From NCBI GenBank assembly GCA_040437565.1, contig JBDOQK010000087.1, forward strand, positions 1-64,000: a stretch of 64,000 bases of DNA. Reading direction: 5' to 3'. This document shows, in pieces, positions 42,170-61,039 of the stretch. The translations under genes and the position numbers were made by a program. Positions within the stretch are counted from its first letter, which is position 1, and every line of letters begins with the position of its first letter. The DNA is from Albugo candida. Its lineage: Eukaryota. The notes beneath the pieces were generated by a model. The model was not told where the DNA came from. It made no database searches and saw only the letters and a program-made list of their open reading frames with translations.

Positions 42170-44574
42170 TTATTCGACCAAAAATGGTCGAGCGTGAGCG
42201 GGATTGACTTTGATCTCTTTCTCGTAGTTTGGATTCACTTTAACGTGAATGGTGCTTCCTTCATGAATTGTCCCGGCTAACAATTGGAGCGCCAGAGGAT
42301 TCAGAACATCGTGCTGTATGAGGCGTTTTAAAGGCCTGGCTCCATACAGCGGGCTATACCCGTCTTCAGCAAGGCGTTGTCTCGCGCTTTCTTCCACATG
42401 CATGGTCATTTCCTTCTCCGCAAGCATCTTCTGTACATGATTCAGCTGTAAATCGACAATTGCACGCAAATCCTGACGTTTTAGTCGATTAAATAGAACC
42501 AGTTCATCGATTCGATTCAGAAATTCTGGAGAATAGTGACTTCGAACGACCGAGAGAACGTCCGATTCAGCGACACTGCTGGGAAGGCCTTCTGGCAACG
42601 ACGCGAGGATCTCGGAACCCAAATTACTCGTCAGTATGATGACAGTATTTCGAAAATCAACCAATCGACCTTGCGAATCGGTAAGACGACCTTCATCCAA
42701 GACTTGGAGCAGAATATTGGAAACATCTCGATGGGCTTTTTCAAACTCGTCAAATAAAACGACTTGATACGGACGTCGACGCACGGCTTCAGTCAGTGTT
42801 CCACCCTCTTCATAACCCACATACCCTGGAGGTGCACCGACAAGACGACTGACGCTGAACTTTTCCATGTATTCTGACATGTCAATTCGAGTCAACGCGT
42901 GAGGTGTTTGAAACAGGAATTCGGACAGAGCCTTTGTGAGCTCTGTTTTCCCCACTCCGGTTGGACCCAAAAACATAAATGCTCCAAGGGGACGATTGTG
43001 CGCGTGTAAGCCAGCCCGAGCCAGACGAATGCAATTGCTCACTGCAACCACAGCTTCGTTTTGCCCGATTACATGGCGACCGAGATGTTCTTCCATTTTG
43101 AGTAAACGCTCTTTCTCACCAGACATTAGCGTGGACGCGGGAATTCCTGTTGCTTGAGCTACCACTTCAGCAACGTGATCCGGAGTAACAGCGTCACCGA
43201 GCACAAGTTTCTTCTTCAATGCCTTGACATCGAAATCATTTTTTTCATCAGCAGAAACTGATTTGGATGGCGCGTCATCGCTTGCGGCCATATCCTCCTC
43301 ATCGACTTGCTTCTCAAGACGAGGAATCACTGCATGCAGTAATTCTCCGGCCCGAGCGTAATCACCACGATTTTGGGCATTTACAAGCTCGCGCCGTGCT
43401 TCTTCCAATTTACGTTTCCCTTCCTGCAACTCTTCCAACCGCTTCTTCTCTGCTTGCCACTGCTCCATCAAGTATTGTAATTCCTCATTGGCATGCGCTA
43501 CTTCTTTTTCCAATTGTTGCATTCGCTTCTTGGACGCATTGTCTTTCTCCTTACGGAGAGCCTCAATCTCAATTCGTCTCAAAATAATTTCACGGTCGAG
43601 TCGTTCAATCGGCTCGGGTTTGCTTTCCTGTTGTAAGCGCAGCCTCGAGGCTGCTTCGTCCATCAAATCAATCGCTTTGTCCGGCATCTTACGCTCAGAG
43701 AGATATCGATGGGCCAATACTGCAGCCGAGACAAGCGCTCCGTCCGATATGCGAACACCATGATGAACCTCATATTTTTCCTTCAGGCCACGCAATATAG
43801 TAATAGTATCCTCGACACTCGGTTCTGGAACCAAAACGGACTGAAATCTTCGCGCTAGCGCTGCATCTTTTTCGATATACTTCCCTACAAACCAAAAGGA
43901 AGAATCATAAGTCGTCATTCTCAAAAACCAACTCGCAAGAACTTACGATATTCGTCCAGCGTCGTTGCCCCCATACAATGCAACGAGCCTCGAGCTAAGG
44001 CAGGCTTCAGCATATTTGCAGCATCAACGGATCCTTCACCTCCTCCACCGGCACCAACCAATGTATGTAGCTCATCAATGAACAAAATGACTTGACCATG
44101 ATATTCTTCAACGTCTTTAAGTACGGATTTTAATCGCTCTTCGAATTCTCCGCGGAATTTCGCTCCGGCTATCAAAGCAGCAAGATCCAATGCGACAACT
44201 CTTTTTTCTTTCAGGCTTTCAGGAACCTCTCCAGCTGCAATTCGTTGGGCTAATCCTTCTGCAATTGCTGTTTTTCCCACTCCCGGTTCTCCGATCAGCA
44301 CTGGATTGTTCTTTGTACGACGCGATAGAATCTGAATGGAGCGTCGAATTTGTTCTTCTCGGCCAATGACCGGATCCAATTGTCCTGCGTGGGCCATTTT
44401 GGTTAGATCTCGCCCAAATTTCACCAAGCTCTCTCCACGCGGCACGTTTTCAGGGTTCACCCAATGTGAGCTTTGACCGCTTCCAGGGCCTGAAGAGCCG
44501 TAAGAAGCAAACGTGCGGACGAGAGGCCATTGTCTACGATATATGATTGACGTATACGACAGTTGACGGAGCAT
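42170..44574 (-). CDS. clpB: Mitochondrial-type ClpB/Hsp78 disaggregase, 2 exons (intron 43885-43946), 780 aa
   Basis: Presequence-like MLRQLSY..RTFAS and no N-domain. NBD1 [15 protein letters not shown], coiled-coil middle domain, NBD2 [20 protein letters not shown]. Splicing restores DEYRKYIEKD. Confidence 0.95.
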
Positions 44575-47086
44575 AATGCACTGAATTTGTAGATTGGTAG
44601 ATGAGAAGCACTCATTATTCGAGATTTTTCTAGTGAACAATGTGCTTATGTCCGTTACGCACTTGATAAAGTTCGGTATGCACGAGCAAGCAAAATGTTG
44701 ATCACATTCGCTAGTGATTGAAGTCGTTCTGTTGCACACGATAGGCAAACCGGGAAAAAGTTTGATAGTAACATACGTGTTTCCATTGTTTGAGACATTT
44801 AATTCAGTGTTTATGGGAGCCTTTGCGAGGTTCAACAGGTGAGACTCGAAAGGCTGATTGCTCTCCCCGATCTTCTCGTTGCTTGCCGATGTGTCCTTGG
44901 CGATACCATTCGGNNNNNNNNNNNNNNNNNNNNNNNNNNNNNNNNNNNNNNNNNNNNNNNNNNNNNNNNNNNNNNNNNNNNNNNNNNNNNNNNNNNNNNN
45001 NNNNNNNNNNNNNGTGAGCTTTGACCGCTTCCAGGGCCTGAAGAGCCGTAAGAAGCAAACGTGCGGACGAGAGGCCATTGTCTACGATATATGATTGACG
45101 TATACGACAGTTGACGGAGCATAATGCACTGAATTTGTAGATTGGTAGATGAGAAGCACTCATTATTCGAGATTTTTCTAGTGAACAATGTGCTTATGTC
45201 CGTTACGCACTTGATAAAGTTCGGTATGCACGAGCAAGCAAAATGTTGATCACATTCGCTAGTGATTGAAGTCGTTCTGTTGCACACGATAGGCAAACCG
45301 GGAAAAAGTTTGATAGTAACATACGTGTTTCCATTGTTTGAGACATTTAATTCAGTGTTTATGGGAGCCTTTGCGAGGTTCAACAGGTGAGACTCGAAAG
45401 GCTGATTGCTCTCCCCGATCTTCTCGTTGCTTGCCGATGTGTCCTTGGCGATACCATTCGGTAGAATGTGATTAGTCGTACATGGTTCTGATCTGATCCG
45501 GCAGGTCAGAAGTTGGGTGCTCTTGTTGAGATACAGCGTAGGAGATTTCGCAATGTAGTGCTCCCCACACATATCCTTGGTTGGAAGTATCGGTGTAGTG
45601 ATAGGCTATCTATCGCTGAATCAACTGCTCTGATTCATAAAATACTCCACAGAATCAGTGATTGAGTGGTAGCTGATGGTCAACTAAGTTCGACTTGCCG
45701 ATCGTCGCGTTTAAGCGTGTCGATAGGCATCGAGGCGCCATCACGTCCATTTTAAACCTTGATGATAGGTAAGGACGATTCCTCGCTCGTGCTAGTCGAT
45801 ATAAATATTCTTCTGGGGTCTACGGCATCAAGCAGAAGCATTTTTTTGCCCGTGCGTCGTACTTCGATCAGATATAGTTGGTCATGGTGGATAATCTGAT
45901 CTTGTGCGAATACACACAGCTGCAGAGCAAAATTGAGGCGTTATTCTGAATTAAAATCACAATTCGCGTGCTTTCTTGCTTGAAAAAATCCATTCTTGTC
46001 GAGGCACAGGTCACATTTCTCTTCCTACTCTCTTTTTAATGCAGAAAGTGGTTAGCCATTGTGGAATCCCACGCACGTGTCGCGTTTCTTGCCTTACCGT
46101 CTCTGCAGTCAACTCAGTCTGTCGCATGTTGCAATGAGCACGCGTTACTCATAATTCGCTGCCTTCTGTGATGGTATCTCTAACTAATCCAAATATGGTG
46201 GCTAAATAAGTAGTACATTAACTCTCTCCATGTTCTATACAGTGACATATCAACTGCTAAAGTCATCGACAATATCTAAACAAATCGACGCAGAGCACTG
46301 ATTTGATCATTTTCTTCATTGACTTTATCAGCTTTAACCGCTTATTTTCCACACTCGCCTTTGGCACTTCGCATAGATGCTGTTTGTCCGTGTTCTAATT
46401 CTGCGCAGTGCTAATCTCTAAACACATTCTGCTTTTTCTCGCCTATAAGCGTGCGTCATTGATTTTGATCCGAACAAAATACAGCCATAATACTGTGTTT
46501 ATAGTATAATTATCCTATCGTTCTGTGAGCACATCACCTGCTCAACAAGCAACTATGCGTGGCAGGCCCAACTCGATGAATCGTTCGTATGCTCACGTAG
46601 CCTGTTTGGCAGTATTCGCCAAGATTCGTGCGTAGACGACCGAATTAAGCATCGACAAATCCTTCCGCTAGTTGAAATCCTGCCAAGCTTACAGCATCAT
46701 ATCACATTTCACGGTAAGGCACGTCTATCGTCAGGTGCTTATATNNNNNNNNNNNNNNNNNNNNNNNNNNNNNNNNNNNNNNNNNNNNNNNNNNNNNNNN
46801 NNNNNNNNNNNNNNNNNNNNNNNNNNNNNNNNNNNNNNNNNNNNTATATCATAAGAAAAAGAGCGGCGGAACACAAAAAAAGAAAGTGAGATTTGTATAT
46901 TTACGTCGTAAGAAGATGATCTCACGCTCAGCCATTCCCAATAAAGAATGCGTCTCAATGTCCCCGCACGCAAAACTCTTCAATTCGCGATACATAAATG
47001 GCTTTGTGTGTTGAGTACATTGACAACTGCCGCAGTATCTCTTCCAAATGAAATCACAACTCATGTCATACTTTGTGCACTTTTAA

Positions 47087-48987
47087 TCAGTGGACGTGTT
47101 TGCATACTTTACACTCTTTATTCCAAACCTGACGAGTGTGTGCGACAAACGATGGACAATTGCATAGTCGACACGCTCCCATGATGCTTGCGCGACGGAG
47201 GACTTGTTCTCGATGAGTCGTGATACTTTGTGTGGCCTTGTTGAGCGCTTCATACAGGGGAGCTGCTGCGGTCGGTTGTTCCACATAACCGCTAAGAATC
47301 TGTTGAGGCTGTAATTCCTGTCCGTAAAACTTGCGATTGATATCGGTACGACTTGCGATGACAGCTCCTTGTAACGAGATTCCAGCATACAACCCTTTGC
47401 TCATTGAATAGCTGTAATTTGCGTTCAGACCGCTTTTACTTGCGGAAGCTACGGCTTCTGCAGATCGACCAAAAGGACCTACCGCCAAATCCAAACCACC
47501 TCCAAGATTGATTTGAGGCTTATGGAATACTTTGACAGCACTTTCCGATCCCAATATGATCATAACTTCAACAATTTCGCCGCCAATCTCTAAACCACCT
47601 CCTAATCCGATGGTCCCGATCGCAGAAGGCGCGGACCAGGATCCGTTAGGTAGCTTGGCAATCACTAAACCTGTTCCAATTTTGCCAGTGACGAGAAATC
47701 CTGCCTTGATGATGGTCATAAGCGCTATTCCATGAGCTTTTTCTAGAAAAGTGATTGGTATCGATCGATCTGCTGAGCTTCCCCACTCATTTCGAAAAAA
47801 GTTGCCAATGATATCAGCTGCATTTTGACATTCTTTCACAAGACTATTGCTGTAGGGAGCATGAAAGCGACCTCGGGCTTCATGCAGGTTTTCGGTGTTG
47901 GAAACGGCATACTTCCGGATGAGTTCTTCCTGGAGAGGTTGCAGTTCTGCGGTACATTGGATGCATGTACGTTGTGGTACCGCAGGATCGTACCCTTTGG
48001 CATTTTCAAATTGTTTACCTGGTGGAATGAGAAAGCGCACAGGAGAGCAATTATTACAAACAAATTGTCCACAATATCGACTACAGGAATTGATGTCAGC
48101 GTCGTTAAACGGTATGGTATGCTTGATTACGTACCACTGATGTCTTCTCTTTGTCACATCGAATCCAATTTTGCATATATCACAATTTGGGTGATCGGCG
48201 TATCGATTCTTAAGCACTCCTTTGGATGGTCTACCACAAATCGCTAAGGAACGAGCTATACGAGGCTTATTACGCATACGTACCCCGTTTGGCCTGACAC
48301 AACCATCGTACGCTCTGAGGCAGCTGGAGCTGGAAATGCTGGAGCCGAATTGGAACCAAATGCATCAAATTGTGTCATCTCGCCTTGATCTACCATTTGA
48401 TCATTGAATTGCACCAACTCCCGACGTCGTGTCTCATCAGGAACTAATCGTGCCAGTAAGGGAATAAACTCGATCGTTTTGTGAGGCCCTAACTCTTGTA
48501 CGATACTTGAATGGAAATCAGATACATTCATAAGCCCTGAACCATAGTTTTTGCAGTTTTTCTTAAACAATCGAACTCCATTTTCATTATTATGCTGTGC
48601 GTTAGCCTGTCGTATGGTATTAACACATTCCTCGTAGCATCGTTGTGCCTCAACACCGGTCGCGGCCGATGGAATTGCACTCGGAATGTAAGACTTTGCG
48701 TGTTTTTTCTCTTGTGAAGGCGCATTGGCGTTCACAAAGCTCGAATGAATTGCTTTGGCCATTGGAATCGCTGCTCCATTGGGTCCATTTGTTGCTTGCT
48801 TGATAAATGCGCTTGTCATTGCGTCTTTATGTCCTTTGTATTTTGGCGCAGTAAATGCGCTTTGCGCTTGGGAAGCTGCCATTTGAATTGTCGATGTAGA
48901 ATTCTGTTCATCATATTTCGTGCCACAATGCGAGCAAAACTTGCCTCCAGTGGCTGGTTCGCCGCAGTTGGAGCAGAATTTCGCCAT
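47087..48987 (-). CDS. Zinc-ribbon + FYVE + Ysc84/SYLF (DUF500) domain protein, about 3 exons
   Basis: N-terminal FCSNCG..FCSHCG. FYVE CDIC..RRHQC..CGQFVC..QRTC split by an intron. SYLF motifs GTGLVIAKLPNGSWSAPS, YSYSMSKGLYAGISLQG and NRKFYG. Confidence 0.9.
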
Positions 48988-50013: not shown

Positions 50014-51795
50014 ATGAAGCGTGGTAATCAGAAAAAAGCACAAAATGACAGAAAAGAGAATAAATATGAGGCATCAAACAAGCACAAGTATGCTGATAAA
50101 GCTATGGAAGAACTCGTCGCCACATCCACACGATTGGATCATGACAATTATAACTTTTTTCGGACCGCCAGGGCGCAAACCGAATTAGACGATTCATTGT
50201 TATTTCATGAGCAGCCACGTCAACTTCTCTTCCTCGTTTTGGTCGTTTTGGTGATTTCATATTACACGTTCACGCATGACAGTGATGTAGGCCCTTCATA
50301 CTGCTGGATTTAATTTGATCATGCGCTTTACATGAGCTTGTAGGATGTGTCTCAAAATATTCATGCAGGAATTATATCGGGTGCGTTCATTTTCCTGGTT
50401 TACTGTTTCTTGCAGACGCGAGACGGACTTCTTGTAAGTTGATATTCATCATAATGCGGTCGGTGTTGATTCGAGCGTGTGCTGTTCAGGTTCGTCCACA
50501 TCCGGGACTTTGGCGATTGGTACACGGCTGCTCAGTAATGTACTTGCTCCTTCTGGCTGTGCTGTCGGTACAAGGACGATCGAGTGCACCAGTACTGCTG
50601 CAATTTTTGTTCCCTCGGATTGGTAGCTCCAAGCAGACAAACTCTGTGAATTTGAATTGCGAGATCAACTCTACTGTTCGTTAGTGCATGGTAATTGACA
50701 CTACTTGCTGACAAGGAATGTTTGTAGAACATCTACAACGGCATTTCGAGTATTTGGTTCTTTGCACATGTTACGGGATGGTGGGGGAAAATGTGTATGT
50801 TTCGTGACTGGCGATTTTGCTTGGTGCTGAGCATATCTTTCGAAATCTTGGAGTTATCGTTGCAATTCATGATTCCCGATTTCAAAGAATGCTGGTAGAC
50901 GCTCTTTATCGTTCGATGTCTTATCTTTTCACAAATGTCTTAGGTGGGACTCCTTATTTATGGACACATTTGGTGCCAATTTGCTCGGAATGGTGTTGGG
51001 CCGTTTAACGCTCCAGTATTACGAGTCGAAAGAGTACGATTGGTCTGGGAAACGGGAAAGAAAGAAGGGCTATTTTTTCTTAATTTTGAAACAATTTACA
51101 CCGCTCAGCTGGTCGCAATATCACTGGGAAGTGTTCTCCAGCTTTCGCCGCTTCTTGCAGGTGAATTGTATCGAAGGCTCTTTTCTTTCATCCGCTGATG
51201 TGTTTTCTATTCCAGATTATATTTGCACTCGCGATGTGTCTGATGGTGGAGTTAAACGCATTCATTCTTTTAGAAACCTTCCACATTCCGAAAGAAAGCA
51301 AATTCAACTCGATGCGCTTAGTGTTAATGTTTTTATGTGGAATTCCGGCAGCGGCAGAGGTAAAAAAAAGCATTTTATCGTCTACAATTCCTACCTGACT
51401 ATGATCTGCAGTACTATGAGTTTCTATCGAATCCGAAATGCTGGCGTTTGGGTCAAAACGCATGGATGATTCTATCCATCGCAGTCTTTGAAAATCTCGT
51501 GTGTGTAAAGTTCGCATCGAGTGAAACTCTATTCAGAAACAGCCCACCGCCAGCAGTATCTTACTCTATACTCGCGTTTCTGGTTATGTTTATCATTTGG
51601 GTGGTGCTCTTTTTCAAAATTCCACGTGGAGCGGTATACGTATCGCACGATGCAACATTACGAATCAGCAAACGTGTGCGTGCCAAAGGACATTCTAAAC
51701 AAATGTCCGAAGTGTCGCAATGGGAAGCGCTAGATATTTTATTTTGGATATCCTTTACACCATTACTACTGCTCACAACGCAATGGGCGTACTGA
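50014..51795 (+). CDS. Phosphatidylserine synthase (base-exchange, PTDSS-type), multi-exon
   Basis: VRPHPGLWR, FAHVTGWWGK, PDFKECW/WD..MDTFGAN, KQFTPLSW, ELNAF and LGQNAW motifs spread over GT-AG-bounded exons. Confidence 0.9.
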
Positions 51796-52255
51796 ACTCA
51801 CCAGTTTGTCACTTCCGCGCAAAGTACGGTAAGTTCTTAATCCGATTACTTTAAACGCACTGATCTAATGACTGAATAGTCAGTACTTCGTGACTGAGTC
51901 CAGCACCTGTTAAAACACATTCAAAACCAGATGATTTGATCGTCGGACACAGATGTTTCGTATAGAGTTTAGAGCCTACAATATTCAGATAGTTTCTCTG
52001 CGTATAGCTTCCGACTCTTGCCTAGCCCTGGGTCATCCGTGCATAGATTCGAACGGGTAGGGGACTAGGAGCTCCAGTTGGAATTGTATGCAGAAATTCC
52101 ATAGCTTACAAATTCATATATGTCTCGCCCATCTCACTTTTTCTTATCACTTCGCCGACCAGTTTAAAATCAGAGTGGGAATAACTTTTGTTCTCTTCAT
52201 TTATTCCATTTGTCATTTCAGACACAAACGCTTTGAATACCACATTTGATTAAAT

Positions 52256-55200
52256 ATGTCCCAACCAACGCACTACCGCGAAAGTTCGCGACGTCGCGCG
52301 AGCTCCAATTACTTTGAATTGGATGCTGATCGCAGACGTACGAAATCGGGACGTAAAGATCGTCTGAGTCATCGAGTGATGAGTCTGGAAGCAGCTGAAA
52401 CCATCCCCGGAGATAAATTCAGCACTGCCCCGCAAAATATCGTCAATTCAACTGCTGTCTTGGATNNNNNNNNNNNNNNNNNNNNNNNNNNNNNNNNNNN
52501 NNNNNNNNNNNNNNNNNNNNNNNNNNNNNNNNNNNNNNNNNNNNNNNNNNNNNNNNNNNNNNNNNCTCCAATTACTTTGAATTGGATGCTGATCGCAGAC
52601 GTACGAAATCGGGACGTAAAGATCGTCTGAGTCATCGAGTGATGAGTCTGGAAGCAGCTGAAACCATCCCCGGAGATAAATTCAGCACTGCCCCGCAAAA
52701 TATCGTCAATTCAACTGCTGTCTTGGATGATGATGAAATCTCTATCGATTATTGCTGTGACTTTCTATACGCGAAATTCGGGTTCCAAGAAGGCTCTGTC
52801 GCCAATCAGCGCGAGCATGTGCTATTACTTCTTGCGAATGGCAAAGCCCGTCACCACCCATCACAACCTTCTCATCACCACATAACACAACTGCACGCAA
52901 AATTAGTTTCCAACTATAAAAGTTGGTGCGAATTCCTAAAAACGAATCCCATTCATTACCAGGGAGTTATCAGTGGGAATTTACGGCATCCCTTACATAT
53001 GGAAATCATGTTGTTTTTCCTCATTTGGGGTGAAAGTAGTAACTTGCGTCACATGCCTGAATGTATATGTTACATATTCCATCAGCTTATGAAGCATCTA
53101 AATCAAGACATTCAAGGACAAGACGGGAAGAAGGAAGGCTGGTTTCTTGAAAATGTCGTTCAGCCGATCTGGGAGGAATGCAGCAATATGAAGCGACGAA
53201 ATCATCTCAATAAACCGCTGGAACATGTCAAAGTACGAAATTATGACGATATTAACGAGTATTTTTGGAAGCCATATTGTCTGAAAATAGAGGTCACGCA
53301 AGTGGGTCACGAACTTGCACAAAAACATGGAAAGACATTTTATGAACATCGAAGCATTTTCACGCTTATCCTCAACTACTATCGAATCTTCCAAGCCAAT
53401 ATTTTATTTCTCACCATTTTAGTTGTTTTAGCATTTGCAGTTTCCATTTCACCGAATGGCGGCCGAAGTGGATTTTCACAATTTCAAGCTTTGGGCAAAA
53501 CCATCGAACCGTTTGAAAAACGTGATTTGAAAATTGGATTTGTTGTTCTTCCATTTGTGATGTCACTTCTCGGAATTTGTAAATGTGTGTTGGAATTCGC
53601 CCATTCATTTCATATTATCTTCTCTTCCGAGTCATCACTGACCTCATCACGATCTTGGCCGTACACTTTGGCACTTGCTGCACGTACATTGTGGCACACG
53701 GGCTTTATGGCGTTATTCGCGTTCATGATTTATATCCCACTACGCGATCAGAGCGACACAACGTTGCTGCAGAATGCGTATGCAGTTATGGCTGTCTATA
53801 TCATCCCCGGGGTCGCCATCCTTGCTGCTCAAACGTTTTATCCGAATCTGATTCGAAAGACATTTGCACTCAAGTTTGTTCGTGAAGGTTCCTCGTCGTA
53901 TGTCGGTCGAGAAATGGCTCCACCATGGAAGTATAAAGTTCAATACGTTCTGTTTTGGATTGTCCTTTGGATCTGTAAGAGTGTTGTCTCGTACACGATT
54001 TTGGTGAGGCCATTGATGCTTCCTTCGTTGGCTGTGTACGAGATGAGATTGACATATCAATCATCCGTGGCCTCGTTCCACAATATCTTGGTTTTGGTAT
54101 CGTATTGGGCGCCAACTGTGTTGATTTTTAACTACGACACACAGATTTATTTCACCATTCTTCAGTCGATTATTGGAGGGTACATGGGCTGGCGGATGAA
54201 GACGGGCGAAATCAGAGGATCGAAAGAATTGACACGAGCTTTTCGTGTGGCACCTCAGCTGTTTGATCAGAAAATTGTGACGAATTTAGCACGCTCCAGC
54301 GATTTGGCTCAATCACTTAATCCCAAAGACAGTAAGACATCCGTAAATGCCGCTACATACGAAAGTCAAATGATGCTGAGATTTGTGGTCGTATGGAATG
54401 AAATTGTCAATTCGTTCCGTGAAGGCGATTTACTTGACGATAAAGAAGCCGCTATTCTCCAATACGATATTCGAAGCAATGGAGAAGTGTTTGAACCCGT
54501 CTTCCTGTCCGCTGGAAAATTAGGAGAAGCTATCACGAAAACAATTCGCAATAGTAAAGATGGAAAAAGCGAGTCACAATTACAAGTGAGTTTGGTGGAA
54601 GGCGATTGCGTCTCAGCAATTAAAAGTTTTTTCACAGCTTGTATGTATGTGATGGAAGCTCTATTCGGAATGGAAGATGGAAATGTCATTGATGGTCTCC
54701 GAATGATGGAAGAAGTTGTGGAGAATCGAGCGTCCATGCGCTCCTTCCAGTTTCAAGAACTCGCTCGCTTACGTCTAGCAGCGTTAGACATTTTGGAAGA
54801 AATTCTCGACTTACCGGACCCAAGCACAGTCTCTGCGCATTTGCCAGACACTTTTATCCACACACTTGGGATCATTCGAAACTTTGTCAATAAAATGGAA
54901 GTACTGTTAAATTCTCTGCAGGCTTTTTCAGAAGCCCCGGAATTAAAGGGAAAATTTGTCAATACCAAGTTTTGCTCCAGTCCAAATGGATACATGTACG
55001 CCGCACAAGGTCTCGTAAATCTGTATCGAAGCGATGTAGCAATGGGTGCCGCTACTCGAGCGTGTTTACTACTGTCGTTGGACCGATCGGAAGCAATGCC
55101 GAGATGCATGGAAGCTCAGCGTCGTTTAGGATTCTTTATGCGCTCACTGGTGATGGAAATCCCTCAATTGAATGCGATTAAAGAGATGCGATCGTTTTCC

Positions 55201-58200
55201 GTTGTCACTCCGTTTTACGCCGAAACAGTTCTTTTTTCGCTAAAGGAATTAAATGATCCGCTGGTGAACCATCCGATTTTCCAAAAGGTCGAAGAAGGTG
55301 GGAAGAATTTGACTATTCTCAAGTATTTGAACAAGATCCATCCCGAAGAATGGGAGAATTTTCTGGAGCGTGTGGACGTTGCGAGCGCTGAGGAAGCACA
55401 AGAGCGATACCCACAAGAGATTCGATTATGGGCTTCGTATCGTGGTCAAACTCTGGCTCGTACGGTGCAAGGTATGATGCTGTACGAAGACGCTATTAAA
55501 ATCCTTCACTGGCTGGAAATCGGGTCGAATTCAGCGCGTACAGCGGAAGAGAAGCAAACACAATTACAGGATATGGTTCGTCTCAAGTTTTCGTACATTT
55601 GTGCGTGTCAAGTGTACGGGAAACATCGACGGGAAAACAAGCAACAAGCCGATGATATCGATTATCTCTTGCAAGAGTATCCGAATCTCCGTGTCGCCTA
55701 CGTCGATACGATCGAATCAGGCGAGAATCAGTACATGTACGACACCGTGTTGATCAAAAGCGAGCAGAATGAGATCGTCGAAGTGTATCGATATCAACTA
55801 CCCGGCGATCCGATTATCGGCGAAGGAAAACCTGAGAATCAGAACAATGCAATGCAATTCACACGCGGGGAATTCGTGCAGACGATCGATATGAATCAGC
55901 AACACTACTTTGAAGAGTGTTTGAAAATGCCCCAGTTACTTCGAACAGCCGAATTGCATTCATCTGGAAAACCTGTTTCTATCATCGGAATGCGAGAGCA
56001 TATTTTCACTGGAAATGCTTCATCATTAGCCAAGTTCAAAACGTGGCAAGAGCTCGTGTTTGTGACGCTATCACAGCGAGTTTTGGCTGACCCGCTTTAC
56101 GTTCGAATGCATTATGGCCATCCAGATATCTTTGACAAGGTATTGGCACTCACACGAGGTGGTGTATCGAAATCAAGCAAAGGGATCAATTTATCGGAAG
56201 ATGTATTCGCTGGATTTAATGCTACATTGCGTGGAGGCGTCGTGACGCATGTGGAGTTTATGCAATGCGGTAAAGGACGTGATGTCGCTCTATCTCAGAT
56301 CTCTATGTTTGAAGGCAAGTTGGCGAATGGAGCCGGTGAGACTTCTTTGGCGCGTGAGGCTCATCGCATGGGTCAATTTATGGATTTTTTCCGGCTCAAT
56401 TCGATGTATTACTCGCATACGGGCTTCTTCTTTGCGACTTGGATGACTGTGGTCACTACGTTTGTGTATATGTACTGCAAAGTTTACATCGCGTTAGTGG
56501 GTGTCCAAGATCAAATCATTTATAAAATGAACGAGACTTCGATTCTCTCACAGAATGAGCGGTACGGCATTCCAAGTCGCGCGTATTACGACACGAATGC
56601 GATTGTGAATACTCAGTATTACATCCAAGCCGGATTGTTTCTTTCACTTCCGCTCGTAGTTGTCTATTTTAGCGAAATGGGATTATATCGTGGTTTTTTC
56701 CGTCTCATTGAAATGGTGATCACGGGTGGGCCTTTTTTCTTCATTTTCCAAGTCGGAACTACGATGCATTACTTTGACAATAATTTGGTCCATGGAGAAG
56801 CACAATACAAAGCTACTGGTCGTGGGTTCAAAATCACAAGAGAGTTGTTTGTGTTACTGTACAAGGCGTACGCGAGCTCACATTATCGAAAAGCATTCGA
56901 ATTGACGGGATTGTGTTTGATCTATCTGACGTATGGAGACTTTAATATTTGCGGGCCGCCTCCGACTGCCGATGGCAATTCGTTCTCATTCGATTTTTGC
57001 ACCACTGCTCAGAGCTTTTGGGTGCAAACGTTTGCCATTTGGTTCATCGCAATCACGTGGTTTATCGCTCCATACATTTTCAATACCGATGGCTTGGATT
57101 TTCAGAAGACGAAAGCCGATATTCAAGCGTGGGCAACCTGGATGTACGCTGATGAGAAGTATGAAGATGAAGATTCCACAATGAATGGAGGATGGATTGG
57201 CTGGTGGAAAAGTGAGCTTAAACTGTTTCACAACTCGAAACCGATCGCTCGTTTGACAATTGTTCTCCGCGAAAGTCGTCATTTTGTACTGATGTGGTAT
57301 GTGGTGACGCTAAAGTGGGATTTACTGACCATTGCGTATGTGCTTGGCGCTGGTGTGCTATCCGTTCTGCTTCTCAATGTGATGTGTCTATTACGACTGG
57401 CGTTCCGACGGTGTCGTCCGATCCCACGCGCTTTGATTTACGTCACAACAGTTTGTCTTGCGATTGCAGCATACTTTGCCATTACCAAATATCTTTTCAG
57501 TACGGATTTCCAGGAAGCTGCGTCTTTATTTTACGGCTATATCGCCGTGCTGTATGGGATCAATGAGATGGCTCGTATGTACAGCTTTCAGTCGACTTCT
57601 ATCGCAAACACCACCATTTTCCAGGAATTAGCCTTCTTTTTCGACTTTATGATTTGTTTCATTATGATCGTCCCGCTATTCATCATGTCTGGAATTCCGT
57701 TTCTGAATATCGTGCAAACGCGGATGATGTACAACAAAGGCTTTTCACAAATTGTTTCAGCGTCTTCTCAGTATGCGTTCTCCTTGGCGGCATTTCTCGG
57801 TGTTGTTGGTGGAAGTGGCTGTGGATGGATCCTTTATGTGATGTCAGTTCTGGAAAGCAGTCCAGGCTTCATCAGCTACGCGACGAATTATGATCTCTTG
57901 GACAATAAAGCTGGAGATGGGACAACGACCTACTATTTCTATTTTGCAGCTGTTATGGCTGCTGTCTTGGGCGGATTTTTCAACTTTTTCTTTGGAAGAA
58001 GACTAACGGTTGTTTGTGGGGGGATGTTATCTGCCCTTGCGATGGTATTGATCAGCGCGGTGACCACGCAAGGAGAGAGTTTGTTGTTCCCTGGAACAGC
58101 GTTATTGGGTGCTTCGATTGGAATTCTACTTCCGAGTATTGCCATTTATATCTACGAAATATCGACACGGGAACTTCGAGCTAAATCGATGCTGTTACTC

Positions 58201-59235
58201 GGCACTGGTTTTATTATTGGCACTATGTTGGGCTCTATCTTTATGTCTCCCGAGCAAGAAATCGGCTGGATTTGGCAGCTGTTTATCGCCAATATTTTGC
58301 TGTCGGTGGTGACACCGGTTGTGTTTTTATTCCCTGAAAGTGCTTATTGGATTTACATGCGGGAAGGAGCGGATTCTTGTGAGCGATGTCTCACTGTTCT
58401 CCGACGTAAAGAAGGCGTTCAGGACGAATTACAGCTTATTCGCGAAGAATCGACTTCAGCAAACAAAAGTACCGGCAATATTTTCAAGTTTGGGCTTGGT
58501 CTGTGCCTGATGATCGTCTCTAGTCTCGCAAATGGAGCGTTAGTTATCTACCTGACAACAGCTTTGGCTACCTCTGGCTCTTCCGCATCAAATTTCACCA
58601 ACTGCGTGATTCTGCAGCTTGTGGGTGCTCTACTTTCCTTCTTTGTTATCGATCGAGTGGATTTACGTCGAGTTTTGCTGGGAACACTTCTACCCATCAC
58701 GTTCTTTGTGGCGATGTTGGGCTTTAATGCCAACACAAACACTTGGACAGGCGATGCGAATAACGTATTTCTACAGCTGGTTGGATGTTTACTATACTTT
58801 TTCCTCGGGCTTGGAACGTCGACGGCATTGTGGGCATCTGCAGTTGGCTTATTCCCGACCAAACAGCGAGCTTTGTACACAACCTTTTACTTTATGATCT
58901 TTTTCCTCATTCCCATCGTGGCGCTGTACATCCGCTCCTCGCCGTCTTTGTATCGATCAGCAGAATATGTGTATTTGTACACATTGGCTGGCGTGTGTAT
59001 CCTTTCGACCATCTTTTTATTCGTGGCCGGGCACTTATCGAATGGTCTCATTGGCACCCGGCAAGAGCAGGAAGTCGAGGAAGCTCAAGTCCGACGTGCC
59101 CGGGCTTCACGTCAGAGCTCAAGACTGACACCTGGCGGACGTATGCGTCATATAAATCGATCACGTGATAAGTCGTACAACAGCAGCGGGTACCAGTTGT
59201 ACGAGTCACCGGCCGCTGGAGGCCGTCTTCCCTAA
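52256..59235 (+). CDS. 1,3-beta-glucan/callose synthase (GT48, FKS-type) fused to a C-terminal MFS sugar-porter domain, about 2238 aa
   Basis: FGFQEGSVANQREH, IWGESSNLRHMPEC, RLWASYRGQTLART, GEGKPENQN, QTIDMNQ, RMHYGHPD, INLSEDVFAG and YKATGRGF. The same ORF continues from about 57770 to 59040 with GRR, YIYEIS..LRA, FPESAYW, IDRVDLR and LFPTKQRA motifs. The true ATG is 52256; 52303-52465 is repeated at 52566-52728 across the gap. Confidence 0.95.
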
Positions 59236-59296: not shown

Positions 59297-61039
59297 CTAA
59301 ACAAACGTCGCAAAATCCAAAATCTGATCAAATTGCTGCTCGGATTCCTGACGGATTTTCAAATTCCAATGTCGTTTTGTGTTGTGATGCAAACTCTCAG
59401 ATAGTAGTGCGTAAATGTCACGCCGCGTGCTTACGAATCGGTACAGCACAAACTGAGATTTTGAGAATGCCAATGCTTCCAAAGCGGTCTCCACATGCAT
59501 ACTTTTCATACATTCGGCTACGCGAGCAAACAGCTGGAAGATGAGATCTCTGCGAGCTATTTTAATTCCATTCGTCGAGCTTAACAGCTGTATACTCGTC
59601 ATCATTAAGCGTGCAATCATCTGAATCGCAACGACTTGCATGGATGGAAACTGAGTGGGCCAACGGTGGAGGAGTTGGCTGAGGAAGTAAGTCGTAGCGG
59701 CTGGAACGTGGGCAACGAGTTGACTCGCACATGTGAGTAATTCCGCTTCATCTGTTGCAGTCGGGTCCATCCAGTGAGTTTTCCACAGATTTAAGAATGT
59801 GCGGATGCAATTTCTTGCAACCACAGTCAAATGTTGCTCCCGATTTTTGCTGAATTGCTCGGTAGAATGATTTTCAATTCCGTGCTCAATCATGTACCTT
59901 AGTAACTCGAGCATTCCATGACCGTGATCGAAAGGATACTCTTTTGACATCGATTCACTGCTTGTACAGCTTTCTAACTCGAAATCGAATTTGTTTGCAT
60001 CGATCGCCTGGACATACTGTAGACGTAATGCGCTACTCTCTGCAAGTGCGATGGCAATGTGACGACGTAAATTCACATTACAGTGTTTATGAATGGCACG
60101 TAAAATATCGAGTCGAGGGCTCGCCAGTCGATAATCTTCAAACCGTAGAGCACTGACAAGAGTTTGTATCAAACGCTCGGAAATAAAGTGTTCGATCACA
60201 TTCGGCTTCTTCACATCGCTTGTCTCAGAAATGTGAGGAAGTAGCCATTGGACAAGGCTTTGTCGTATACTTGCTTCCGTCGATTCTTGATCTGTATCGG
60301 TCCCTGTATTCTCACTGTCGTCCAAAATAGCCGATGCTTGCCCACGCGAGCTCTTGGTGCCTGCTAGACCAACTGCACCTGCGCTGAGCTTGCTACGTGA
60401 TTTCTTGGCGAACAGCGTATCATAAATTGTATCAATTACGACCTCACGATCCCCATGTTTAGGGACATGCTTTTGAACACTCAGCAGTGAGAAGCGAGTA
60501 GGAAAAGCGCTAGAACTTTTTTCCTGGGCAGCAAAAGGCTTTGGGAAGAGTTCATCATCACGAGTTGTAGGAGCGTTATCTCGCTTGCCAATTTTACATT
60601 CCCCTGAAATGATTCTTTGCTTCGATCTGTTCGTTATTGACGTTCGATCATTACGCGGGACTGGTTGTGGCCTTCGACTCGTCAACATTTGCTGATTTCT
60701 TGTGAATGAACGAGGCTTTTCTTCCTTGGGCTTTGGCTTTTCTTTCAGCGTTTTTGATTTTGAAAATCCTTTTGTTCCGATTCGTTTTGTTTGCGAGGAA
60801 TCACATTGCTTTGTTGAGCTTAGTCGCTGATTGTACTGCCTTGGAGGTGGAATTTGTGATGGTTTTCGTCGATCCTGAGCTAGAGTGAGATGTCGGAGCA
60901 TCCCGTCAACCGGATTGTCTTCATCGGTATCTTCGGTACAGTCCGTATGGTGGCGATGATGACGAGAATGTGTATGCTTCCCCGAAGTCGCTGACTTTTT
61001 GCGGTTCTGCAAACGGATTCGCGAATTTCGCACACTCAT
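59297..61039 (-). CDS. Divergent PP2A B56 (B')-like protein with a long basic low-complexity N-terminus; start uncertain
   Basis: C-terminal half recalls B56: EDYR..ILRAIH, HGMLELL, LLHRWP, LFARVAECMKSMHVETALEAL and NTKRHWN. Confidence 0.7.
   Translation of the reverse strand: MSVRNSRIRLQNRKKSATSGKHTHSRHHRHHTDCTEDTDEDNPVDGMLRHLTLAQDRRKPSQIPPPRQYNQRLSSTKQCDSSQTKRIGTKGFSKSKTLKEKPKPKEEKPRSFTRNQQMLTSRRPQPVPRNDRTSITNRSKQRIISGECKIGKRDNAPTTRDDELFPKPFAAQEKSSSAFPTRFSLLSVQKHVPKHGDREVVIDTIYDTLFAKKSRSKLSAGAVGLAGTKSSRGQASAILDDSENTGTDTDQESTEASIRQSLVQWLLPHISETSDVKKPNVIEHFISERLIQTLVSALRFEDYRLASPRLDILRAIHKHCNVNLRRHIAIALAESSALRLQYVQAIDANKFDFELESCTSSESMSKEYPFDHGHGMLELLRYMIEHGIENHSTEQFSKNREQHLTVVARNCIRTFLNLWKTHWMDPTATDEAELLTCASQLVAHVPAATTYFLSQLLHRWPTQFPSMQVVAIQMIARLMMTSIQLLSSTNGIKIARRDLIFQLFARVAECMKSMHVETALEALAFSKSQFVLYRFVSTRRDIYALLSESLHHNTKRHWNLKIRQESEQQFDQILDFATFV

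Follow-up and report, generated by a model that had tools for sequence, protein, structure and literature searches.

A beta-1,3-glucan synthase of family GT48 was predicted to run in frame into an MFS sugar-porter domain in the 64,000-nt stretch of Albugo candida DNA analysed here (the window). The questions raised by this locus are whether the two parts are made as one protein, and what a sugar porter might do at the end of a wall polysaccharide synthase. Much of the oomycete wall is the product of beta-1,3-glucan synthases, enzymes whose fungal counterparts have been proven as drug targets.

The architecture itself is already known, having been in print since at least 2018, and the window adds no new kind of system. 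Glucan_synthase-Sugar_tr was listed by Leonard 2018 for oomycetes, with the list of Seidl 2011, as cited there, as the source, and for Hyphochytrium catenoides (Hypho2016_00001204). The combination is thus neither confined to annotations, as the original prediction had it, nor strictly oomycete-specific, as it had suggested. A 2024 proteomics paper on Saprolegnia (PMC11302233) describes the fusion, names Albugo among the carriers and gives the domain as absent from fungal glucan synthases. Full-text literature searches found no functional characterisation of the fused MFS domain, in keeping with the original prediction. What is added here is the clade-wide distribution, the single old origin, the position of the junction and a comparison of which motifs have been kept and which lost.

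The frame carrying both parts contains no stop across 6.65 kb, and the gene model at this locus is as follows:

52256..52302, + strand: real beginning of the coding sequence (MSQPTHYRE...), lying 5' of an assembly artefact; read from the sequence, with record P0002 starting with the same residues
52466..52565, no strand: assembly gap of 100 N, flanked by a duplicated 163 nt (52303-52465 equals 52566-52728)
52582..59235, + strand: GT48-MFS frame as it stands in the window, uninterrupted, with the stop codon at 59233-59235

The ORF only looks truncated at its 5' end because of the 100-N gap with its flanking 163-nt duplication. Contigs of runs X1 and X4 join 52302 directly to 52566 (263 nt skipped, both repeat copies being 163 nt), and the gap is an artefact and not an intron. 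ORF 52256..52630 holds the true 5' end, the real start being the ATG at 52256, which gives a full protein of 2238 aa; the Albugo candida record P0002 is also 2238 aa, and the C-terminal region of the GT48-MFS ORF is 100% identical to it. Residue numbers used here are counted from the ATG at 52642 and refer to a 2197-aa protein. The span first given for the fused region, 57770-59235, was right apart from a start one base out of frame (57769 and 57772 being in frame), and all the strings quoted from it are present in the frame 52582..59235.

Along this frame the following parts were recognised:

53002..53289, + strand: FKS1_dom1 (residues 121-216; PF14288, E 5e-27, 94.8 bits, cut-off 27)
55393..57177, + strand: GT48 Glucan_synthase domain, stretch with the best Pfam match (residues 918-1512; PF02364, E 2.4e-185, 618.6 bits, cut-off 37.2)
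57715..57750, + strand: terminal conserved GT48 motif QTRMMYNKGFSQ (residues 1692-1703; sequence comparison)
57763..58329, + strand: N-half of the MFS domain, TM1-TM6 (residues 1708-1896; AF2 helices, motif positions, conservation)
58336..58458, + strand: PESAYW (1898-1903) and three intracellular helices (1901-1939) with L1917, L1920, R1921 and E1929 (AF2 model helices 215-253)
58477..59025, + strand: C-half of the MFS domain, TM7-TM12 (residues 1946-2128; AF2 helices, alignment)
59026..59232, + strand: basic Ser/Arg-rich tail, starting with a predicted helix (2140-2159) and ending in ...YESPAAGGRLP

Glucan_synthase and FKS1_dom1, which the protein has in common with fungal FKS1 and plant callose synthases, both exceeded the Pfam gathering scores and place it in GT48. 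Its best-conserved part was residues 501-1245, with a mean identity of 73.5% and 259 of 745 columns invariant over 33 rows, figures that describe overall conservation. Sugar_tr lies C-terminal of GT48 in the same frame, and the protein is in this respect a member of the published fusions.

The Sugar_tr profile (PF00083) matched residues 1718-2128 (nt 57793-59025) at E 1.1e-18 when the whole protein was searched, and at E 2.6e-20 with 73.2 bits (cut-off 22.3) on the last 487 aa; MFS_1 gave 52.3 bits on the C-terminal domain against a cut-off of 33.4. Judged by these profile scores, the Sugar_tr match is far beyond chance. An AF2 model of the last 511 aa (pLDDT 77.9, pTM 0.79) contained 6+6 TM helices, with three more helices separating TM6 from TM7 and another at the C-terminus, and the best Foldseek matches were STP6, STP10 and GLUT3, with TM-scores of 0.62-0.76. 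A family profile matched GlcP (E 1.4e-24), STP10 (6.6e-20) and GLUT1 (1.1e-19). SLC22A11, the sole phmmer match in PDB sequences (E 0.004), was rejected as a relative, the family profile having corrected this assignment to sugar porters. As modelled, the C-terminal domain is a 12-helix sugar-porter fold, and the agreement of Pfam, AF2 and Foldseek bore out the predicted single-ORF fusion of GT48 with an MFS sugar porter.

The distribution of the fusion proved to be wide. Among the 120 best GT48 matches the domain was present in 100, belonging to two clades, A and B, and the 20 without it comprised 15 members of clade C, 3 plant callose synthases, which lack it as had been predicted, and 2 truncated models. 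Every full-length member of the oomycete GT48 clades A and B among these 120 best matches carries the MFS domain, and both domains were found in all 19 of the matches to the C-terminal region. A single branch of the MFS tree parts the 100 fused from the 39 free rows with SH-like support of 100 (SH-aLRT likewise 100 in a 38-row IQ-TREE MFS tree under LG+C20), and in the GT48 tree one change between fused and unfused suffices. The window copy lies inside clade A in both trees with starred support. Separate fusions for clades A and B were rejected because both domain trees need only a single change, and on the evidence of these trees the fusion arose once, before the split of the two oomycete GT48 clades.

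A near-length search for a close free-standing MFS relative returned one match, P0021, itself a fused fragment, and the best free proteins were only 23-27% identical to the MFS domain. The whole-library search gave 310 matches at E<=0.001, with 24 at E<=1e-10. GT48 was found in none of six proteins scanned from among these, five long or multi-domain matches (P0040, P0136, P0098, P0117 and P0134) and P0068 (763 aa); they proved to be sugar porters in tandem or extended form, a kinase fusion and a retroelement chimera. The ESM Atlas yielded ordinary Sugar_tr clusters only. The Saprolegnia parasitica enzymes SPRG_15364, SPRG_09073 and SPRG_20212 and the hyphochytrid fusions have the same domain order and length as the window copy; SPRG_09073 (P0193) is 73% identical to it in the catalytic region and also belongs to clade A, and SPRG_20212 (P0252) belongs to clade B. 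Nothing essential sets the window copy apart from these known oomycete and hyphochytrid fusions, of which it is a member.

The position of the junction could be read against unfused enzymes. A QxRxMFNxAF motif is common to plant and unfused oomycete GT48, both of which stop 25-35 residues past it. Within the terminal motif QTRMMYNKGFSQ of the window copy, Q1692, T1693, R1694, M1695, M1696, N1698, F1701 and S1702 were invariant over 33 clade A rows, and MFS helix 1 begins about 16 residues further on, where the unfused enzymes end. By this comparison GT48 is fused to the MFS domain without a linker, and the protein differs from plant and unfused oomycete GT48 in its 12 extra helices and tail. 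A 953-aa AF2 model of the synthase membrane region together with the MFS domain (residues 1245-2197) had a pTM of 0.54, with the domains themselves confident and the junction residues 1693-1709 at a pLDDT below 50, and it showed no packing of the MFS domain onto the synthase. Complex prediction of residues 1245-1704 against 1705-2140 scored 0.00 in two runs, which were made without controls and left our own alignment unused.

Two separate proteins could in principle still be made, through cleavage, an internal start or a different transcript end, the long ORF then being no more than a gene-model view, and Leonard 2018 held that an operon-like arrangement could not be ruled out without proteomics. 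Seven GT..AG introns, of 49-57 nt, are missing from the contigs of X1 and X4 over the upstream gene, and these contigs were therefore taken as spliced RNA, a status guessed from this absence alone for what is one study with no RNA label on record. Two of them, X4 contig 9 (56265-59196) and X1 contig 3 (56265-58531), span the junction without a joint. Transcript ends are not visible from these contigs, with which extra shorter transcripts are compatible, and this leaves some room for two proteins; no junction-spanning piece was present in X5 or X6, where X6 pieces reach at most 377 nt and the longest X5 piece is of 743 nt (54119-54861). PMC11302233 reports that three of the fused enzymes were detected in Saprolegnia parasitica, in detergent-resistant fractions of the plasma membrane, with a sequence coverage of 10.6-32.8%, taken here at the level of the whole protein. 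Against two proteins stand the lack of any stop or spacer before MFS helix 1, a GT48-MFS frame that is continuous in 100 homologues of two clades, the RNA-like contigs that cross the junction unbroken, and the fact that P0021, the sole near-length MFS-only protein, is a fragment still bearing the end of GT48. We consider it very unlikely indeed that two proteins are made.

The motifs of the protein begin at residues 1692 (QTRMMYNKGFSQ), 1784 (FGRR), 1836 (YIYEIS), 1898 (PESAYW), 2004 (DRVDLRR) and 2070 (LFPTKQRA). The domain has the 6+6 helices of the MFS and its motif A (G-x-x-x-D/N-x-x-G-R-R) between TM2 and TM3, where FGRR (1784-1787) sits, with G1785 conserved at 100% in clade A and 95% in clade B, R1786 at 90% and 100%, and R1787 at 97% in both. 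The N-half also has Y1836 and E1839...R1846, and the sugar-porter motifs kept in it are E1839, R1846 and P1898-E-S. Clades A and B have kept the PESPxW residues, L1917, L1920, R1921 and E1929, as have free sugar porters, and GRR, E1839, PESPxW and R1921 stand at 93-100% in both clades. Identity was 50% in the N-half, with 10.7% of columns invariant, and 39% in the C-half, with 3.2% invariant, the latter being the least conserved half of the MFS domain. The intracellular helical bundle of the AF2 model consists of model helices 215-253 and 454-473. In the tail, model confidence was below 50 at residues 2160-2197; R2167 and P2190 are invariant in clade A, and an RSR...ESP pattern is also found in the consensus of clades A and B.

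The degenerate motifs noted in the original prediction held up on comparison with free sugar porters, DRxGRR being altered to DRVDLRR. The QQxxGxN signature of TM7 is absent, the QQFIGIN of GlcP aligning with 'sslftg' in the profile: its QQ (67% and 74% in free rows, with the G at 100%) is S/S without a conserved G in clade A and F/A in clade B, and the PETKG columns, 77-100% conserved in free rows, are replaced in both fused clades, although the alignment of TM7 and TM12 to free sugar porters may be imprecise and only the change from QQ to SS is backed by two methods. Replacements also affect Y1971, the TM11 Trp, the TM4 Arg, which stands at 92% in free rows, and the G and N of QQxxGxN. At position 2069, where 97% of free rows have E, clade A has G (95% of rows) and clade B has E (100%). 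Kept in clade A are W2064 of TM10, N1987 and a TM8 Gln aligning with an Asn of GlcP. The fused domain thus has the fold, profile, GRR, E-x6-R, PESPxW, intracellular helices and TM10 Trp in common with GlcP, STP10, STP6, GLUT1, GLUT3, PfHT1 and XylE. In contrast, it is only 13-19% identical to solved sugar porters, its 73 bits in Pfam compare with 309 and 322 bits for the free relatives P0038 and P0041, and it is without QQxxGxN, the TM4 Arg, PETKG and the C-half Glu (the Glu being lost in clade A).

Since the N-half and the switch are kept, the sugar site and the C-half are degenerate, a linker is lacking and the origin appears to be single and ancient, we would place a regulatory or accessory role before sugar uptake or glucan extrusion. 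The reading we prefer, to which we give a probability of roughly 45%, is that the Albugo copy is the known fusion, made as one polypeptide of 2238 aa, in which the MFS domain would be an accessory or regulatory module and not a canonical hexose carrier or a glucan pore. The complete and highly conserved GT48 part ends in its usual terminal motif and, about 16 residues on, the chain enters the 12-helix MFS domain and then the basic tail. The motifs by which sugar porters switch conformation, in the N-half and on the cytoplasmic face, are retained (GRR, E-x6-R, PESPxW, intracellular helices), and most C-half hallmarks for sugar binding or salt bridges (QQxxGxN of TM7, PETKG and, in clade A, the Glu of ELFP) are gone. 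Built into the synthase in this way, with its cytoplasmic face and tail beside the catalytic domain, the module could tune synthase activity, stability or membrane placement. The unfused GT48 enzymes of oomycetes, plants and fungi work without an MFS domain.

It is possible, if on balance rather unlikely, that the domain is instead an active carrier, a proton symporter or facilitator whose substrate would be glucose, a beta-glucan oligosaccharide or some other small solute, which would place nutrient uptake or the recovery of wall fragments beside synthesis; substrate transport coupled to enzymatic processing was an idea of Leonard 2018 and was shared by the original prediction, in which the domain, as a transporter or a sugar sensor, would link wall glucan synthesis with the supply of sugar. 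The complete 12-TM sugar-porter fold, the retention of motif A (GRR), E1839...R1846, PESPxW and the intracellular helices in both clades, W2064 and the TM8 Gln, the C-half Glu kept by clade B, and purifying selection on the domain since before the clades split all speak for such a carrier. Retention of the switch motifs would be equally expected of a working carrier, and counts to that extent against the accessory reading, and loss of the canonical sugar ligands may still be compatible with another substrate. Against a carrier, however, the TM7 QQ has given way to S/S or F/A, and there are replacements at Y1971, the TM4 Arg, the TM11 Trp, the G and N of that signature and PETKG, which stands at 90-100% in free rows. 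In solved sugar porters it is the C-half that contributes most of the sugar ligands, and here this half is the least conserved part, with its 3.2% of invariant columns. Direct channelling to the active site would not be possible because several cytosolic steps lie between imported glucose and UDP-glucose.

The role put forward speculatively in PMC11302233, that the domain helps to move the growing beta-1,3-glucan through the membrane or away from it, would suit its linker-free attachment to the last synthase helices. As described in a review (PMC12715860), though, FKS1 has a translocation channel of its own, which TM5-TM12 form below the active site. The MFS domain comes after the last synthase helix and not after these channel helices, and clade C of the oomycetes, as well as plants and fungi, export glucan without such a domain. 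MFS cavities accept small solutes, and we know of no polymer-conducting MFS protein; a part in moving glucan is improbable. A passive membrane scaffold, serving microdomain or hyphal-tip sorting, oligomerisation or stability with its motifs as relics, would fit the weakly conserved C-half and the enrichment of all three fused Saprolegnia enzymes in detergent-resistant membranes given in PMC11302233. Two Saprolegnia synthases that are unfused, with 16 predicted TM helices, are however listed in that paper's table of detergent-resistant membranes as well, and a passive anchor should not need GRR, E1839, PESPxW and R1921 to be preserved at 93-100% in both clades for so very long. A scaffold role, too, has in our judgement little chance of being correct.

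The regulatory reading can be put in a sharper form, which we offer as a speculation that is itself doubtful: the MFS domain would be a pseudo-transporter acting as a built-in allosteric switch of the synthase, with the alternating-access machinery of its N-half and intracellular helices kept and no sugar carried. Its state would be set by a small extracellular or membrane ligand, the proton gradient or phosphorylation of the conserved Ser/Arg tail, and passed via the linker-free junction to the GT48 terminal motif and the catalytic domain, with clade A (C-half Glu lost) and clade B (Glu kept) differently biased. If true, a processive synthase of a wall polysaccharide would be regulated here on a principle without counterpart in fungi or plants, and the switch would be a target that only oomycetes and hyphochytrids offer. 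Since most oomycete GT48 enzymes have the domain and the plant ones seen lack it, it offers an obvious point of attack for controlling white rusts, downy mildews, Phytophthora and Saprolegnia selectively. The yeast sensors Snf3 and Rgt2 likewise combine a sugar-porter fold with a cytoplasmic C-terminal tail, and non-transporting signalling is possible for both them and the fused domain; they are free-standing, keep the sugar-binding residues and have much longer tails with a repeat of their own.

In Albugo candida, clade A is represented by at least three copies (P0002, P0003 and P0183), and the copy in the window reads PESA where the clade consensus has PESP.

On the + strand of the window a single frame stays open from 52582 until its stop codon (59233-59235), and residues are numbered here from its first ATG (52642; 2197 aa). 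The Albugo candida protein P0002 (2238 aa) is 100% identical to the window protein's C-terminal region and carries 41 residues ahead of this ATG. The sequence at 52466-52565 consists of 100 N, 163 nt are duplicated on the two sides of this gap (52303-52465 and 52566-52728), and contigs of the sequencing runs X1 and X4 connect 52302 straight to 52566. This combination of gap, duplication and joint gives a true coding sequence of 52256..52302 + 52566..59235, intron-free and starting at ATG 52256. Thus the missing 5' residues, and the apparent start of the frame at 52582 or 52642, are consequences of an assembly artefact at the scaffold gap.

The original prediction was of a GT48 glucan synthase fused in frame to a C-terminal MFS sugar-porter domain. 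All the motif strings that it quoted were found in the frame, and the open frame and Pfam confirmed the fusion far beyond chance, although the start that it gave for the fused region, 57770, is one base out of frame.

Pfam domains of the window protein (all + strand)
Residues 121-216: FKS1_dom1
Residues 918-1512: Glucan_synthase, best stretch, E 2.4e-185
Residues 1718-2128: Sugar_tr, E 1.1e-18 on the whole protein
C-terminal part: MFS_1

Searched alone, the last 487 aa scored 73.2 bits for Sugar_tr (cut-off 22.3) and 52.3 bits for MFS_1 (cut-off 33.4). A structure model of the last 511 aa, built on an alignment of 19 homologues (mean pLDDT 77.9, pTM 0.79), has 12 long helices arranged 6+6, three short ones from TM6 to TM7 and one past TM12. 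Its top Foldseek matches in the PDB (TM-scores 0.62-0.76, identity 13-19%) were the plant sugar/H+ symporters STP6 and STP10, human GLUT3, GLUT7 and GLUT1, PfHT1, GlcP and XylE. A family profile of nine MFS-only fragments of the fused family matched GlcP (E 1.4e-24), STP10 (6.6e-20) and GLUT1 (1.1e-19). Model, Foldseek and profile together show that the C-terminus adopts an MFS sugar-porter fold, as had been proposed. A single-sequence PDB search with the domain returned SLC22A11 alone (E 0.004); this SLC22-type identity was overturned by the profile, in which SLC22 members reached E 1e-7 or worse.

The architecture itself is already known, and the window gene is an ordinary Albugo candida member. 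Leonard et al. (Open Biol 2018, PMC5795050) took the 53 architectures listed as oomycete-specific by Seidl et al. 2011, looked for them in Hyphochytrium catenoides and described Glucan_synthase-Sugar_tr as a fusion common to Pseudofungi. A 2024 study of the Saprolegnia parasitica plasma-membrane proteome (PMC11302233) describes oomycete glucan synthases that form a group carrying an MFS sugar-transporter domain at the C-terminus, names Albugo among the carriers and reports the detection of three fused proteins, with a coverage of 10.6-32.8%, in detergent-resistant membranes. There the domain is called unique to oomycetes, whereas Leonard et al. add the hyphochytrids. Our full-text literature search found no functional study of the MFS domain.

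Leonard et al. also cautioned that an operon-like arrangement is possible in the absence of proteomics, and the making of two separate proteins has to be weighed against the X1 and X4 contigs. The database-side label of these runs, 'RNA?', is a guess only. However, one contig of each omits seven GT..AG segments (49-57 nt) in the upstream gene at 50286-51879, and they thus behave as spliced RNA. X4 contig 9 (56265-59196) and X1 contig 3 (56265-58531) span the GT48/MFS boundary near 57715-57763, jointless and with zero differing letters. No joint was found inside the glucan synthase frame among the X1 and X4 contigs, which come from one study, lack transcript ends and may include DNA carry-over. 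We regard two separate proteins as barely credible. Contigs of both runs stop exactly at 56265, within the catalytic region, possibly by collapse against the close paralogue P0003, which is 83% identical in the catalytic query region (residues 900-1560).

Distribution was assessed in the top 120 protein matches to the catalytic region. A precomputed PF00083 match was present in 93 of these, and an HMM of the alignment's MFS columns detected the domain in 100. The 20 without it were 15 unfused oomycete proteins of clade C (about 1600-2050 aa), three plant callose synthases and two truncated models (P0179, P0202). All fused proteins with a named source among these 120 are from oomycetes, and they form two clades.

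Fused GT48 clades (catalytic identity to the window protein; MFS HMM score; members)
Clade A: 65-83%; above 300; P0002, P0003 and P0183 (three Albugo candida copies), SPRG_09073
Clade B: 48-52%; 71-193; two Albugo laibachii proteins, SPRG_20212

A FastTree of the MFS domain was built from 139 rows (39 clade A, 60 clade B, 40 'free'), fused rows being dropped at <=1400 aa or <=420 HMM positions covered, and free rows outside 420-600 aa, at coverage <=330 or at score >=120. P0034, a row listed as free, exactly matches a stretch of the fused P0172; the tree sets the 100 fused rows against 39 free sugar porters on one branch with SH-like support of 100. The same split was recovered (SH-aLRT 100) by IQ-TREE under LG+C20 with 38 rows (10 clade A, 10 clade B and 18 free at random), where the clade A stem is long (1.28). 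The GT48 tree comprised 109 rows (35 clade A, 57 clade B, 14 clade C, three plants), after removal of proteins of <=1800 aa and of fused rows whose MFS match did not begin at the HMM start; every group formed one clade, and fused and unfused proteins were separated by one change. Since the MFS and GT48 trees agree, a single fusion preceded the split of clades A and B, with the caveat that the trees are unrooted and have long branches.

The domain is without a close free-standing relative. A search for MFS relatives near the same length returned a single match, a fragment still carrying the GT48 end. Scanning 1.84 billion representatives gave 310 matches at E<=0.001, only 24 of them at E<=1e-10, and the best free proteins are 23-27% identical to the domain. 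GT48 was found in none of five long or multi-domain matches (P0040, P0136, P0098, P0117, P0134) nor in P0068 (763 aa). One distant match, the unnamed P0098 (1188 aa), is another transporter-enzyme fusion, with an N-terminal sugar-porter and a C-terminal protein kinase domain.

Conservation by region (mean identity of 32 clade A homologues to the window protein; invariant columns over all 33 rows)
Cytosolic/GT region: 73.5%; 34.8%
Synthase C-terminal membrane region: 59.2%; 22.2%
MFS N-half: 50.3%; 10.7%
Intracellular helices: 42.2%; 12.5%
MFS C-half: 39.1%; 3.2%
Tail: 37.0%; 3.2%

The comparison then turned to columns with a residue common to 60% or more of the 39 free relatives. Both fused clades keep the TM1 Gly, G1785-R1786-R1787, Y1836, E1839, R1846 (Lys or Arg in clade B), G1860, W1876, P1898-E-S-P-x-W1903, L1917, L1920, R1921, E1929, D2004 and W2064. 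Replaced in the fused clades are the TM4 Arg (92% of free rows), the TM7 QQ pair (67% and 74%; S/S in clade A, F/A in clade B), the G (100%) and N (72%) of the TM7 signature, Y1971, the Gly of DRxGRR, the TM11 Trp and P-E-T-x-K-G after TM12 (77-100%). The Glu of E-L-F-P (97% of free rows) is Gly in 95% of clade A and Glu in 100% of clade B. Independently, HMMER aligned GlcP QQFIGIN with 'sslftg' of the family profile, and GlcP VLWVMLPELFPMRARG with 'vlWlsaielFptkqRa'. The motif degeneracy noticed originally is thus borne out, and extends to the TM4 Arg, PETKG and TM11 Trp. Structures of GLUT, XylE and STP proteins place most sugar ligands, the TM7 glutamines included, in the C-half, and the Glu/Arg motifs of the cytoplasmic face stabilise the outward-facing state. 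Read against these roles, the N-half switch apparatus is kept, and the sugar site and C-half clamp are degenerate. The basic Ser/Arg tail is conserved.

In clade C and in plants, the chain stops 25-35 residues past a conserved motif (FQQRVMFNNAFTSGLEVSKLF..., FQTRLMFNQAFSRGLEISLILAG...). Fused proteins carry the same terminal GT48 motif (IVQTRMMYNKGFSQIVSASSQYAFS...), invariant in the 33 clade A rows, and MFS helix 1 begins about 16 residues past its start; the junction has no linker. The basic stretches GRR, LRRKEG, DRVDLRR, TKQR and the Arg-rich tail all lie on the membrane side where helix 1 starts, which by the positive-inside rule would be cytosolic. PMC11302233 predicts 16 helices in unfused and 27-29 in fused Saprolegnia enzymes, and a review (PMC12715860) gives 17 for yeast FKS1. 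A single-chain model of the synthase membrane region plus MFS (953 aa) reached pTM 0.54, with low confidence at the junction.

The synthase is complete and strongly constrained, the MFS domain is covalently and closely attached to it, and the domain has been retained long-term under an asymmetric pattern of constraint. We favour, at a probability of about 0.45, an accessory or regulatory module that is neither pore nor canonical hexose carrier, and whose cytoplasmic face and tail would adjoin the catalytic domain. A working carrier for some solute is less likely; the switch residues are present, and the TM7 glutamines are replaced. PMC11302233 speculated that the domain aids glucan extrusion. 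GT48 enzymes have a glucan channel of their own, formed by TM5-TM12 according to PMC12715860, and glucan is exported by enzymes without an MFS domain; a role in glucan exit is improbable. We give equally little credence to a passive scaffold or sorting signal, a reading to be set beside the long-term retention of the domain and its conserved N-half motifs. The original interpretation is partly supported: the fusion, the fold and the degenerate motifs are borne out, and a transporter or sugar sensor coupling glucan synthesis to sugar supply, perhaps non-transporting and regulatory, is a conjecture. For an accessory or regulatory module or any other function of the domain, the motif pattern, linker-free junction and single ancient origin leave fewer experiments worth doing.

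Neighbouring loci in the window
50286-51879, + strand: upstream gene with seven very short introns, each omitted in X1 and X4 contigs; its exon ORF 50960-51466 matches phosphatidylserine synthase (PF03034, E 6e-15)
59297-61039, - strand: convergent neighbour, weak B56 (PP2A regulatory subunit) match, E 1.8e-11
42170-45078, - strand: abutting ORFs 42170-43918 and 43921-45078, resembling one ClpB/Hsp104-type double AAA+ protein split by frame
47087-48277, - strand: Ysc84 actin-regulator ORF (domain E 4e-38), also weakly FYVE-like

In contrast to the upstream gene with its seven introns, the 6.7-kb glucan synthase gene has none. The frame split of the AAA+ protein could be due to a short intron, a frameshift or a sequencing error. 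The stop of the B56-like neighbour lies about 60 nt from that of the glucan synthase, and since X1 contig 4 (58502-61069) spans both convergent gene ends, their 3' ends may overlap.
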